Assembly (NCBI GenBank): GCA_903838055.1
Contig: CAILWV010000016.1
Coordinates: forward strand, 91,252 to 155,251
Source: an uncultured Bacteroidota bacterium
Lineage (GTDB): Bacteria; Bacteroidota; Bacteroidia; Flavobacteriales; Flavobacteriaceae
DNA: 64,000 nt
Direction of reading: 5' to 3'
Shown here: positions 3,146 through 43,417 of the stretch, one piece after another
Layout: every line of letters starts with the position of its first letter
Position numbering within the stretch: position 1 is the first letter of the stretch
Translations under genes and position numbers: made by a program
The notes under the pieces: generated by a model
What the model saw: the letters and a program-made list of their open reading frames with translations, nothing else
Database searches by the model: none
What the model was told of the DNA's origin: nothing

Positions 3146-4441
3146 TTATTTTTTTGATTTATCTTTATCCTTTAAAGACGTGATTTTAACTTTATCGCCA
3201 GAATTTAAGTCCTTTGAAACTGTTACATAAGGCCCCGTAATTACTTCGTCACCCTTTTTTAATCCAGATATTATTTCAATATTAGTGTCATCTTGAATTC
3301 CTGTTTTTACAATTCTGATTTTAGCCTTATCCCCAACTTTCACAAAAACACATTCTAGTTTTTTATCGCTTTTGGTCTTAACTTGATCATTATTTTCTAA
3401 AACCTGATTTTTTGATACTGCAGTTGTATCCGATTTTATCACAACTGAACTAATTGGTATACCAATTACATTTTCTTTTCGAGTAGTGATAATGTCAACT
3501 GTTGCAGTCATTCCTGGTCGAAATGGAGAATACGTATCTGGTTTTCCTTGAATTAAATCTAAATAAGATTCTTTGAGAATTCTAACTTTTACTTTAAAAT
3601 TAGTTACTTGATCAGCTGTTGTAGTTGAACTTGCCGAATTAGAAATACTAGTTACAATTCCTTTAAATTCTTTTTTCAAATAAGCATCTACTTGAATTTT
3701 AGTTTCGTCTCCAATATTAATTTTAACAATATCATTTTCGTTTACATCTACTTCAACCTCCATGTTGTTCAAGTTGGCTACACGCAACAATTCGGTACCT
3801 GCCATTTGTTGAGTTCCTAAAATTCTTTCCCCTAATTCAACACTAAGTTTTGAAATCGTACCATCGTTAGGTGAATAAATAGTCGTTCTACCTAAGTTGT
3901 CTTTAGCTTCTTTTACAGATGCTGAAGCACTTTGAACATTGTAATAAGCTGTTTGTTTATTTGCCTTTGCAACTTCAAAAGAAGCTATTGCTTTGTCCCA
4001 TTCCGATTTAGAAATGATGCCTTTTTCAAATAAGGTTTTGTTTCTTTGGTAACTTGCTTGCGCTTCTTGGAAAGAAGCTTCTGCTTGGTTTAATCCTGAT
4101 TTAGTTCCCGAATAATTTGAAACCGAACGATTTAATCCAGAAGTATATAAATCGGGATTAATTTTCACTAACAAATCTCCTTTTTTAACCACTTGTCCTT
4201 CTTTAATAGGTAAATCAATAATTTCTCCAGATACCTGAGACGATATCTTCACTTCAATCTCTGGCTGAATTTTACCAGTAGCCGAAACAGTTTCTACTAT
4301 GGTAATTTGATTGGCTTTGGCAGTTTCTACTTCTATTGATTTGTCATTACTACCTAATACTCCTGCTTTAGAAAGTGCAATTAACACGATAATTAACGCA
4401 ATAATAATTCCAATAATAATATAAATTTTCTTTTTTGACAT
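3146..4441 (-). CDS. Efflux periplasmic adaptor (membrane fusion protein)
   Basis: N-terminal TM anchor, SATGKIQPEIEVKISSQVSGEI, coiled-coil hairpin and FRPGMTATVDI. Confidence 0.9.
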   Translation of the reverse strand: MSKKKIYIIIGIIIALIIVLIALSKAGVLGSNDKSIEVETAKANQITIVETVSATGKIQPEIEVKISSQVSGEIIDLPIKEGQVVKKGDLLVKINPDLYTSGLNRSVSNYSGTKSGLNQAEASFQEAQASYQRNKTLFEKGIISKSEWDKAIASFEVAKANKQTAYYNVQSASASVKEAKDNLGRTTIYSPNDGTISKLSVELGERILGTQQMAGTELLRVANLNNMEVEVDVNENDIVKINIGDETKIQVDAYLKKEFKGIVTSISNSASSTTTADQVTNFKVKVRILKESYLDLIQGKPDTYSPFRPGMTATVDIITTRKENVIGIPISSVVIKSDTTAVSKNQVLENNDQVKTKSDKKLECVFVKVGDKAKIRIVKTGIQDDTNIEIISGLKKGDEVITGPYVTVSKDLNSGDKVKITSLKDKDKSKK

Positions 4442-41107: not shown

Positions 41108-41923
41108 ATGATTATTCCAAAAACAAGAGAAGAAATAGAATTAATGCGCGAAAGTGCACTGATAGTTTCTAAAACCTTAGGAGAAATAGCAAAAGTTATT
41201 AAGCCTGGTGTGACTACTTTATATTTAGATAAATTAGCCGAAGAATGCATTAGAGATCACGGGGCTGTTCCTGGGTTTCTTGGTCTTTATGGCTTCCCGA
41301 ATACCTTATGCGTAAGTCCGAATACTCAGGTGGTTCACGGAATCCCTAATAGCAAGCCTCTAGAAGACGGCGATGTTATTTCGGTAGATTGTGGGGCCTT
41401 AAAAAACGGTTTTTATGGTGATCACGCTTATAGCTTTGAAATTGGAGAAGTAGCGCCTGAGGTGAAAAAGTTACTTCAAGTTACTAAAGAAAGTCTTTAT
41501 GTTGGAATACGGGAATTCCGGATTGGGAATCGTGTTGAAGATGTAGGAAGTGCAATACAAAAATACTGTGAAAGTCATGGTTACGGAGTTGTACGTGAGC
41601 TTGTAGGTCATGGTTTAGGCAGAAAAATGCATGAGGATCCTGAAATGCCAAATTACGGAAAACGTGGGCGTGGCAAAATGTTTATTGAAGGAATGGTGGT
41701 TGCTATTGAGCCAATGATTAACATGGGAACCAAGAATGTAAAACAGCTCAAAGATGGCTGGACAATTCTTACTGCCGATGGCAAACCCAGCGCGCATTTT
41801 GAACATGATGTAGCATTAATAGACGGAAAACCAGAAATTTTATCTACTTTCAAGTATATTTATGATGCTTTAGGTATTGTTAGTAACGAAGAAGATGAAT
41901 TTAGAAAACAACCTATAATTTAG
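41108..41923 (+). CDS. map: Methionine aminopeptidase type I
   Basis: HGIP, DCG, GDHAYS, GHGLG, AIEPM and AHFEHDV. ATG at 41108. Confidence 0.97.
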   Translation: MIIPKTREEIELMRESALIVSKTLGEIAKVIKPGVTTLYLDKLAEECIRDHGAVPGFLGLYGFPNTLCVSPNTQVVHGIPNSKPLEDGDVISVDCGALKNGFYGDHAYSFEIGEVAPEVKKLLQVTKESLYVGIREFRIGNRVEDVGSAIQKYCESHGYGVVRELVGHGLGRKMHEDPEMPNYGKRGRGKMFIEGMVVAIEPMINMGTKNVKQLKDGWTILTADGKPSAHFEHDVALIDGKPEILSTFKYIYDALGIVSNEEDEFRKQPII

Positions 41924-41924
41924 A

Positions 41925-41950
41925 CACGAATTTCACGAATTTTCACGAAG
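41925..41950 (+). repeat. Three CACGAA(T/G) units at 9-10 nt period
   Basis: CACGAAT tt CACGAAT ttt CACGAAG, starting 1 nt after the map stop codon. Confidence 0.7.
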
Positions 41951-42020
41951 AATTTTGTTTTAATAAATGTTTAAATCTGAAATAAAACGACATACTAAAT
42001 TAGAATTAGTTTATTTCTTT

Positions 42021-42639
42021 CACCAAGTTACACTAAGTAGACACAAAGATGCACAAAGGATTTTGTATGAAAGTTAAAAAAAATATTTATTTTTTATGAA
42101 TTGAATCTATTCCGATAGTTTGAATTATGAAATAAAAACCTTATCTTGAAATAGAATTAACACGTTAATAATTTCAAGAAGAATTAAAAAGGTTTATTAT
42201 GAGAGAGGAAAACAAATTATTTGTTGATGAAGAATTAGAAGCAATTACCTATAAAGTTATAGGTTTAGCAATTGAGGTTCACCGTCAGTTGGGGCCAGGA
42301 TTACTAGAATCTGCCTATAAAGAATGTTTGTATTATGAAATAAAGAACAGTGGTTTTAACGTTGAAAAAGAAATAAAATTGCCAATAATTTATAAAGATT
42401 TGAAAATTGACCATGGATACCGAATGGATCTTTTAGTTGAAAACAGATTAGTTTTAGAATTGAAAACCGTTGAAGGATTTAGTGCTGTCCATTTTGCCCA
42501 AATCTTGACATATTTAAAACTAGGAAATTACCCATTAGGATTATTGTTGAATTACAATTCGACAATTTTAAGAAATAATATTAAAAGATTAATTAATACT
42601 CCTTCGTGAGACTTTGTGATCCCTTTGTGAATCTTTGAG
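42021..42639 (+). mobile_element. Putative GxxExxY cassette bounded by inverted heptamer arrays
   Basis: Left: CACCAAG-3-CACTAAG-4-CACAAAG-3-CACAAAG (42021-42058). Right: CTTCGTG-3-CTTTGTG-4-CTTTGTG-3-CTTTGAG (42602-42639). Mobility is inferred. Confidence 0.55.
42199..42609 (+). CDS. GxxExxY protein (PD-(D/E)xK nuclease-like fold)
   Basis: LGPGLLESAYKECL, YRMDLLVE, VLELK, AQILTYLK and GLLLNY. Confidence 0.93.
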   Translation: MREENKLFVDEELEAITYKVIGLAIEVHRQLGPGLLESAYKECLYYEIKNSGFNVEKEIKLPIIYKDLKIDHGYRMDLLVENRLVLELKTVEGFSAVHFAQILTYLKLGNYPLGLLLNYNSTILRNNIKRLINTPS

Positions 42640-42646
42640 AAATTAT

Positions 42647-43417
42647 ATGAAAAAAATATTCAAGTTTATATTAAATACTATCCCGAGGCCGATATTAATT
42701 CGGTTAAGTATTGTAGTGCGCCCAATATTAGCATTTTTATTAAAAGGAAATCGATTTACAGATCCCATTGACGGGAAAAGCTTCAGTATGTTTTTGCCTT
42801 ACGGCTACGGAAACCAGCGCAATAATGTGCTTTCACCAAGTACCCTTTCGCTAGAAAGACACCGTTTATTATGGCTGTATTTGCAAAATGAAACCGATTT
42901 TTTCACCTCAACAGAAAAGAAAAAAGTTTTGCATTTTGCTCCCGAACAAGAATTTTACAAACGTTTCAAAAAACAAACAAATATCCAATACACCACCACC
43001 GATTTACTTTCACCTTTGGCAGATGTGAAGGCAGATATTTGTAATTTACCCTTTGAGGACAATGCCTATGATATTATTTTCTGCAACCATGTTTTAGAAC
43101 ATATTCCAGATGACACTAAAGCGATGCAAGAATTATATCGGGTTTTGAAACCTGGCGGAATGGGAATATTTCAAATTCCACAAGAGTTATCTCGAGCTAC
43201 TACTTTCTCAGATGATTCTATTGTAGACCAAAAAGAACGTGCTAAAATCTTCGGACAATACGATCATGTTCGCGTTTACGGAAGAGACTATTTTGACAAA
43301 TTAAGGAGCATCGGTTTTAAAGTAATTGAAGAAGATTACACATCCAAACTTACACCAGAATTAGTAGAAAAATATTGCTTGGCAAAAGGAGAAATTATAC
43401 CGGTTTGTTTTAAGTAA
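42647..43417 (+). CDS. Class I SAM-dependent methyltransferase
   Basis: SLERHRLLWLYL, LHFAPE, DIIFCNHVLEH and RVLKPGG. ATG at 42647. Confidence 0.88.
   Translation: MKKIFKFILNTIPRPILIRLSIVVRPILAFLLKGNRFTDPIDGKSFSMFLPYGYGNQRNNVLSPSTLSLERHRLLWLYLQNETDFFTSTEKKKVLHFAPEQEFYKRFKKQTNIQYTTTDLLSPLADVKADICNLPFEDNAYDIIFCNHVLEHIPDDTKAMQELYRVLKPGGMGIFQIPQELSRATTFSDDSIVDQKERAKIFGQYDHVRVYGRDYFDKLRSIGFKVIEEDYTSKLTPELVEKYCLAKGEIIPVCFK

Follow-up and report, generated by a model that had tools for sequence, protein, structure and literature searches.

Phased inverted repeat arrays around GxxExxY nuclease genes at operon junctions suggest an undescribed kind of mobile cassette

Here we describe a small nuclease gene of the GxxExxY family that is bracketed by inverted arrays of short, phased repeats in a 64,000-nucleotide stretch of DNA from an uncultured Flavobacteriaceae bacterium (assembly GCA_903838055.1, contig CAILWV010000016.1, positions 91,252 to 155,251), hereafter the window. 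The gene and its arrays are inserted between map and a methyltransferase gene. Relatives of the gene in several phyla, and in phage-like contigs, have the same layout of gene plus arrays, and this suggests a mobile cassette of a kind not yet described. In our favored reading, to which we assign a probability of roughly 0.45, it is a mobile or selfish cassette of compact size, with phased-repeat ends that would serve as the cis-acting sites for its own PD-(D/E)xK nuclease. The window has a GC content of 32%, and its nearest relatives are Flavobacterium. The locus is composed of the following parts.

41108-41923, + strand: map, type I methionyl aminopeptidase, the upstream host gene (TIGR00500, E 4.6e-86; PF00557)
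41925-41950, + strand: outer left array, three CACGAA units with a period of 9/10, 1 base past the map stop (CACGAAtttCACGAAttttCACGAAG)
41951-42020, + strand: spacer 1, lineage-specific (blastn matches in the window and loci L081/L082 only)
42021-42058, + strand: inner left array, the left terminal inverted repeat of a type-A cassette, four CACNAAG units with 3-4-3 spacing
42059-42198, + strand: spacer 2, lineage-specific, with a hairpin at 42144-42179 just 5' of the ATG
42199-42609, + strand: GxxExxY / PDDEXK_3 gene, 136 aa (Pfam and NCBIfam profiles)
42602-42639, - strand: right array, four inverted units, CTTNGNG in + strand lettering, with 3-4-3 spacing
42647-43417, + strand: class I S-adenosylmethionine-dependent methyltransferase, the downstream host gene (PF08241 and related families)
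41950-42646, no strand: 697-nt block missing from an alternative allele (DNA contig of run X3)

The inner left array consists of CACCAAG (42021-27), CACTAAG (42031-37), CACAAAG (42042-48) and CACAAAG (42052-58), separated by tta, taga and atg. It is mirrored on the right by CTTCGTG (42602-08), CTTTGTG (42612-18), CTTTGTG (42623-29) and CTTTGAG (42633-39), separated by aga, atcc and aat, with the last base 7 nt short of the methyltransferase ATG. The TGA stop of the gene (42607-42609) overlaps the first right unit. These mirror-image arrays had been pointed out in an earlier model-made reading of the letters alone (the sequence-only reading), and they are indeed present: the 38-nt combined array pattern has two sites only in the 64 kb (0 and 1 mismatch allowed) and 0 matches in 100 dinucleotide-preserving shuffles of the window. 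The sequence-only reading overlooked the third array at 41925-41950; the 3-4-3 spacing that it stressed is one flavor, and a commoner one has a period of 9/10 nt. The left and right heptamers of the window are complementary and the spacers between heptamers are not; in the orthologous cassettes of L077 and L159/L160, the entire arms of ~44 nt form near-perfect inverted repeats. The spacer between the inner left array and the gene measures 3-75 nt in other type-A cassettes. In the window it contains a hairpin (TCTTGAAAT/ATTTCAAGA, 42144-42152 / 42171-42179), also noted earlier, which forms in the predicted RNA fold as well. Nested or duplicated arrays are frequent: the window (41925-42058) and L002 each have two left arrays, L301 carries relic CGCAGAA-type inner arms within outer CACGAA arms upstream of the gene, and L298 and L300 have a complete hairpin upstream plus a right arm downstream of the gene.

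The profile searches agree with the earlier assignment of all three genes. For the GxxExxY protein, PF13366 scores 135 bits against a cut-off of 22 (E 2e-39) and TIGR04256 scores 140.7 bits against a cut-off of 35 (E 2.5e-41). Residues G34, E37, Y40, D77, E87 and K89 are invariant in an alignment of 46 sequences, and the AlphaFold2 (AF2) model, with a predicted local distance difference test score (pLDDT) of 91, displays a minimal PD-(D/E)xK core. The gene product is thus predicted to be a minimal PD-(D/E)xK nuclease. In the PDB its fold comes nearest to those of Cas4 SSO0001, lambda exonuclease and tRNA-splicing endonucleases, generic PD-(D/E)xK neighbors with template-modelling scores (TM-scores) <0.5 throughout, and Rai1 is also among the structural neighbors of the model; a sequence search of the PDB with the window protein gave no match. 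PF13366 is the sole Pfam match of the gene, and no HUH Y1 transposase domain (TnpA_REP) was found. A known anti-phage defense family was considered for the window protein and rejected, given that no PADLOC profile matches it; the protein of a second lineage (lineage B, below) has a marginal match only (E 0.005). The PF13366/TIGR04256 family comprises 30,329 clusters at 50% identity (E up to 0.001), and the literature mentions GxxExxY and PF13366 only in passing. Many database proteins of 250-295 aa (P0241-P0256 and others) carry two GxxExxY domains, and may represent tandem cassettes that are read through or fused.

Comparison of related genomes showed that the cassette is an insertion. The methyltransferase has 561 relatives in the genome collection, and a search with it of one genome per species gave 80 loci. 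In 29/80 species the stop codon of map and the ATG of the methyltransferase overlap (TAATG or TGATN; an intergenic region of -1), and this overlapping, translationally coupled stop/start is the ancestral state of the junction. Because stop and start overlap in these 29 species, the window carries an insertion, as the sequence-only reading had proposed; presence and absence also vary among close relatives, in the comparison of empty and filled spacers that it had called for. At the other junctions, inserts are placed exactly between the stop and start codons. The occupants include lineage A GxxExxY genes, whose products are 70-100% identical to the window protein, and lineage B genes encoding proteins of 124-126 aa with 31-39% identity to it. 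Both lineages are flanked by inverted arrays. The lineage-B array reads CACNRAtttCACNRAttnnCACNRA plus its mirror image, and in L020 it forms a perfect 32-nt inverted repeat. Other junctions hold GxxExxY pseudogenes (L019, L078, L080), remnants keeping the 3' end of the gene with the right array (L055 and L001, the latter the closest relative), or array-only hairpins (L046, L016, L009, L048). Arrays in Flavobacterium are nearly confined to this junction: only one extra array was found in ~726 kb, and none ever in shuffles. This sole off-junction array belongs to a gene-less, hairpin-like element right after the stop of a phosphoglycerate mutase gene (L079, 1935-1959).

The same slot also accommodates unrelated cargo. 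In four species (L026, L027, L034, L037) it holds a gene for a DUF3667 zinc-ribbon membrane protein of 255-261 aa, which in L037 shares the slot with a lineage-B GxxExxY gene. Inserts of ~1.8-1.9 kb at L008, L036, L051, L064 and L069 encode a 435-aa AAA_15/AAA_21 ATPase and a partner of 160-174 aa; the ATPase matches the PADLOC candidate defense families HEC-02A and PD-T4-4_A. A partial CACGAA unit is retained at the left edge of the ATPase insert in L069. In L022, L038 and L067 (locus 3989-4012), and also in L036 and L069, the methyltransferase starts with (A/G)TGAAATCTGTG..., and these first codons resemble a right-array unit; it looks as if the right array had been taken into the beginning of the coding sequence (MKSVF versus MKK(I/L)F).

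The arrays are not peculiar to Flavobacterium. We scored the alignment of the upstream flank of each gene against the reverse-complemented downstream flank of the same gene. Over 44 distinct GxxExxY loci the median score was 43, compared with a shuffle maximum of 22, and 35/44 loci scored >=30, above every shuffle. By inspection, flanking arrays accompany 9/9 gene-ascertained loci outside Flavobacterium; among these, flanking inverted 3-unit arrays accompany 6/6 viral ones, including L302, which the automated score missed owing to its start-codon call. The unit sequences of the viral loci differ (CGCAGAA, GATGAACC, AATGAAAC, CACGAA, CGCNAAAG), and 3/3 Verrucomicrobia-type loci have CACGGA/CACGAA arms. 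Flanking inverted, phased arrays therefore accompany other GxxExxY genes family-wide, which the sequence-only reading had made a test of its own proposal.

The lineage-B array pattern was further found in 71 viral-contig stretches and in at least 120 metagenome stretches with a GC content of 30-68%. Of the 120 metagenome loci listed, 13 encode GxxExxY, nearly always directly between or beside the arrays; these include contigs of 55-58% GC and one gut contig. According to a rough call of open reading frames (ORFs), the arrays are mainly intergenic. Neighboring arrays <=120 nt apart face each other as CAC..>/<..GTG 64 times, compared with 4 times for the reverse arrangement. The loop lengths are bimodal: most are <=60 nt, a second class of ~380-570 nt corresponds to gene size, and few fall at 110-250 nt. 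Gene-less hairpins built from such arms are frequent in contigs whose GC content ranges over 30-68%. We rejected the idea that their loops are recent deletion derivatives, as none of 19 loops of 45-330 nt has a significant GxxExxY remnant, though L001 and L055 at the Flavobacterium slot have one.

Several array-rich stretches show other arrangements. In the phage-like contigs L147 (2534-10705), L095 (5316-7817), L145 and L150, with 45-63% GC, solo or paired arrays occupy many intergenic gaps, with four identical copies in L095; no GxxExxY gene was found in these stretches, and the neighboring genes include those for a Tad2-like anti-defense protein and a Dam-type methylase. In L212 (1787-2658), L277 (85-512), L286 (12-808) and L231 (64-317), 5-11 arrays lie within <1 kb, a block of one orientation being followed by a block of the opposite one. 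L157 (3950-5410) is a repeat mosaic, where arrays of type-A-like and type-B-like form take turns with hairpins of a second repeat family (tgtcattctgagcgaagtgcaacggag...gaatct...). In L156 (14119-14220), four TTCGTG units are directly followed by four CACGAAG units, a divergent type-A arrangement that would be expected at the junction of two elements or at joined ends. CsrA-like GGA sites and sigma-54-like motifs, considered for the high-GC arrays, were dropped since the low-GC arrays lack GGA.

Short repeats arise easily in AT-rich intergenic DNA, and the arrays might in principle be chance or low-complexity sequence devoid of function. The comparative data contradict this explanation, the probability of which is practically nil: the shuffles gave zero matches, conservation goes well past synonymous-site identity (below), and homologous genes are repeatedly surrounded by arrays in contigs that differ widely in GC content.

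Several properties of the arms bear on whether they act as DNA sites or as an RNA stem. At variable positions, arms of the same element are 0.79 identical, compared with 0.62 for shuffled partners (0/1000 shuffles as high), and the dinucleotide bordering the first CAC on its outer side covaries in the two arms (0.9-1.0 versus 0.44-0.74 shuffled), as expected of defined element termini. The spacer bases immediately 5' of the second and third CAC, on the other hand, vary independently in the two arms, evidence against a simple selected stem, and the CAC..A core stays fixed across widely different GC contents. From these sequence patterns, we read the arms as defined element termini carrying repeated, putative protein-binding units, rather than as a selected duplex.

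Under the opposing explanation, the AU-rich arms act in the mRNA as linkers or as a long-range stem, enabling translation of a promoterless cassette without a Shine-Dalgarno sequence and restoring downstream coupling or processing, and the nuclease might cut RNA. It fits the translational coupling of the ancestral junction and the placement of the arms, which adjoin stop and start codons in every operon context, such as GTGtctATG (L311) and TGAgaCAC (L236, L303). The likeness of same-element arms is also compatible with it, and so are the tRNA-splicing endonucleases and Rai1 among the structural neighbors. The sequence-only reading had likewise suggested that the arrays pair as a stem around the gene. 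The heptamers are complementary, and in favor of a long-range stem the predicted fold does pair the right array with a left one, namely the outer left array (41925-41950) and not 42021-42058. Against it, the window cassette folds only slightly better than its shuffles (z-score -1.9). Moreover, the two arms fail to match at 40% of the variable unit positions, a stem needs neither tandem phased units nor a CAC core kept in contigs of 30-68% GC, and arrays occur solo and in both orientations upstream of genes. No known RNA family could be assigned to the arrays or the cassette: Rfam searches of 41700-42900 (E up to 1) and of eight array-bearing loci (gathering score) both gave no match.

The transcripts provide evidence on both sides. 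The cassette is transcribed together with its neighboring genes: it is always co-oriented with them, metatranscriptome contigs run across both of its junctions, and neither a promoter nor a terminator of its own could be assigned, as sigma-70-like sites occur at chance level (the scan consensus does not model Bacteroidota promoters) and no terminator-like site was found in the cassette. These points suit an mRNA role. However, excision at the RNA level, which the sequence-only reading had envisaged, finds no support, for no RNA joint skipping the cassette appears in four metatranscriptomes (weak evidence, from assembled contigs at low depth). Altogether we regard a role of the arms in the mRNA as unlikely. 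At the DNA level, by comparison, a river-metagenome contig (run X3) joins 41949 to 42647, that is, the outer array directly to the methyltransferase ATG, and the filled form is present on a second contig of that run. In RNA runs X25-X27, metatranscriptome contigs from related strains part from the window sequence at 41942-41949. Breaks thus seem to recur at the inner edge of the outer array.

Near-identical cassettes reside at different loci. Proteins that are 78-92% mutually identical, with matching arms, were found at five different junctions: between cysH and cysD, after nuoH inside a nuo operon, between an ABC ATPase gene and its permease gene, upstream of a gene which by eye we take to have a valS-like N-terminus, and after a gene with what we take, again by eye, to be a sigma-factor-like C-terminus. 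These cassettes are always co-oriented with their neighbors, and their arms abut the stop and start codons. The sources are named as Verrucomicrobiota, Acidobacteriota and Chloroflexota metagenome-assembled genomes (MAGs), for which binning errors are possible. The lineage-B protein P0121 is publicly named 'NADH:ubiquinone oxidoreductase', and the nuo-operon cassette (L303, 1501-1875, after nuoH) may be the origin of such misannotations. The ends have the form of terminal inverted repeats, with arms of 25-45 nt and a covarying outer dinucleotide. As the sequence-only reading held, no recognized transposase lies within or adjoining the cassette, and the arms enclose no other ORF. An integron attC site with IntI does not apply either: the 4-kb flanks contain no integrase but housekeeping operon genes, and the arms are phased direct repeats, unlike the imperfect palindrome of attC.

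These observations establish the architecture of the cassette and enable us to propose how it moves. It consists of a promoterless small-nuclease gene bounded by imperfect terminal inverted repeats, each arm having 3-4 short units at about one per DNA helical turn, and is placed, co-oriented and co-transcribed, in the few bases between an operon stop codon and the next start codon. An oligomer of the nuclease might bind the phased units of both arms and cut at or near the covarying outer ends. Cutting would then drive the spread: the cassette might be excised and reinserted elsewhere, or break-induced copying might carry it into related junctions or into hairpins made of the arms without the gene. 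The gene-less hairpins would be non-autonomous relatives, comparable to miniature inverted-repeat transposable elements (MITEs) or to REPINs, hairpin doublets of repetitive extragenic palindromic (REP) sequences. The map/methyltransferase junction of Flavobacterium is a long-standing slot, in which two deep lineages, remnants and other accessory genes replace one another.

Within Flavobacterium, the cassettes stay in place. All six close homologues that we looked up (three of lineage A, three of lineage B) are located at the same map/methyltransferase junction. On a neighbor-joining tree of map plus methyltransferase, lineage A requires 11 changes for 13 taxa (random mean 12.3) and lineage B 17 changes (random mean 20.4), so that the A, B and empty states differ little from a random scatter. 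Within lineages, cassette and host distances correlate with r of 0.74 and 0.69 (Mantel p ~0.001), and the cassette evolves at about twice the rate of its flanks. The slot is thus turned over via loss and replacement, each lineage being largely inherited or co-transferred with its flanks. The gene has a dN/dS of 0.03-0.13, with 0.07-0.13 for the gene of the window, and the right array is 65-91% identical between species, compared with 21-59% at fourfold-degenerate sites; the window array is 89-91% identical to those of L002 and L003, for which fourfold-site identity is 53-59%. Therefore, both gene and arrays are under purifying selection. Given a single slot per lineage and divergence tracking the flanks, the cassette behaves as an old, largely inherited resident of Flavobacterium. 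Accordingly, the selfish cassette of the sequence-only reading stands as regards insertion, variable presence and arrays family-wide, whereas a recently hopping element in Flavobacterium is not supported, in view of the fixed slot, the host-tracking divergence and the strong purifying selection.

Inheritance of this kind could also be produced by a free-standing, homing-endonuclease-like gene. Its product would cut an unoccupied or differently occupied junction, repair would copy the cassette together with its flanks, and the arrays would serve self-regulation or self-protection. The cassette does lie between conserved genes, with intact, degenerate and absent states patchy on the host tree; two lineages compete for one Flavobacterium slot, and related phages have several alleles at one slot. 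Co-conversion would give the observed correlation of cassette and flank divergence, and purifying selection has lasted although the gene is dispensable. However, cassettes of one type lie in at least five unrelated junctions that have no target sequence in common, and the abundant gene-less hairpins would be left unexplained. I-Ssp6803I is a homing enzyme of the PD-(D/E)xK type, and it is absent from the 50 best structural matches listed for our model. In addition, we know of no free-standing homing endonuclease gene with terminal inverted repeats. A homing gene is in our judgment decidedly unlikely.

Strong purifying selection and long residence suit, in turn, a domesticated host or defense module, in which the nuclease has a cellular role in defense or repair, the arrays are operator or loading sites, and the junction is a permissive accessory slot. 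The ATPase pair matching candidate defense families HEC-02A and PD-T4-4 uses this very slot, and a precedent exists in RAYTs (REP-associated tyrosine transposases), reported to be domesticated nucleases flanked by their own repeats (PMC8266576). Against this stand the PADLOC results for both lineages and the frequent pseudogenes and losses; a selfish nature is suggested by the presence in phages and by near-identical copies in MAGs that bear the names of different phyla. We consider domestication very unlikely, though more likely than chance repeats.

Several findings weigh against a mobile cassette that uses its arms as nuclease sites. Phage proteins that are 70-82% identical have wholly different units (CGCAGAA, GATGAACC, AATGAAAC, CACGAA), which is hard to fit to simple sequence-specific recognition and contradicts a strict co-evolution of protein and unit. 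None of 75 array-bearing viral stretches has a GxxExxY gene nearby, and in L147 almost all genes are preceded by arrays, which share a single orientation and are placed directly ahead of the Shine-Dalgarno sequence, a solo-array layout that looks regulatory. No consistent target-site duplication was detected at the inspected junctions, where AT-rich flanks limit the power, the cassette has no strand-transfer enzyme, and to our knowledge no PD-(D/E)xK protein of 125 aa transposes DNA alone. Furthermore, both Flavobacterium lineages keep to one slot with divergence following the host, arrays are scarce away from it, and long-term purifying selection at a fixed locus equally fits a host-beneficial or domesticated role. 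Because of the absent target-site duplication, the lack of known strand transfer, the single Flavobacterium slot, the mismatch of phage units and the solo arrays of L147, we hold the cassette reading at somewhat below even odds.

A broader proposal is that GxxExxY cassettes form a previously unrecognized class of prokaryotic mobile elements, with a sole nuclease of ~125 aa, phased-array ends, a preference for operon stop/start junctions in several phyla and phages, and many unannotated gene-less hairpins. We put this forward tentatively, as possible but on balance doubtful. Regardless of its fate, the conserved cis-architecture offers the first testable hypothesis for PF13366/TIGR04256, a family on which we found almost no literature, namely that the protein works with the arms. 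Such a pairing would explain the sporadic, multi-copy distribution of the family, the odd positions of GxxExxY genes in nuo, cys and ABC transporter operons, and the AT-rich hairpin repeats that lie unannotated in GC-rich genomes and in phage-like contigs. Should the nuclease indeed mobilize its ends, DNA mobility would gain a new enzymatic route, and the REPIN/RAYT system a new analogue.

The searchable literature contains no description of this architecture, and the repeat strings appear in no paper; the layout can nevertheless be compared with four known systems, of which REPIN/RAYT and MITE/transposon pairs come nearest. The intervening sequences of 23S rRNA, excised by RNase III, resemble the cassette in having a small ORF inside inverted repeats within a host transcript, and the GxxExxY and intervening-sequence protein families presumably share a similar sporadic, multi-copy distribution. 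In contrast, the cassette lies in mRNA operons instead of rRNA, RNA contigs are continuous over its junctions, and its arms are phased repeats with a conserved core, beyond a plain stem. Free-standing homing endonuclease genes share the position of a small nuclease gene between conserved genes, the patchy occurrence of intact and decayed copies, and the alternative occupants of one slot in related phages. The cassettes differ from them in their inverted repeat arms, their unrelated junctions and the lack of detectable similarity to characterized homing enzymes. DNA transposons with their MITEs share terminal inverted repeats with covarying outermost bases, several sub-sites per end as in Tn7 and Mu, gene-less short forms that outnumber the gene-bearing ones, and near-identical copies at different loci. 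Unlike these, the cassette has no DDE, serine, tyrosine or HUH transposase and no detected target-site duplication, its one protein is of ~125 aa, and its units are just 6-7 nt long.

The REP/REPIN and RAYT system (TnpA_REP, 'REPtron'; PMC3733652, PMC8266576) differs in that its enzyme is an HUH/Y1 transposase rather than a PD-(D/E)xK nuclease, and that a REP is one GTAG- or CGTC-tagged palindrome rather than a phased array of 3-4 units. It also reaches hundreds of repeats per genome, whereas the arrays appear rare in the ~726 kb of Flavobacterium DNA scanned (one extra array) and are dense in some high-GC and phage-like contigs; our elements, moreover, lie exactly between operon stop and start codons. 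The two systems have in common a single nuclease gene between inverted copies of a short repeat, repeats that also occur as gene-less intergenic hairpin doublets, a gene that is mostly vertically inherited under purifying selection, and different repeats for different gene lineages.

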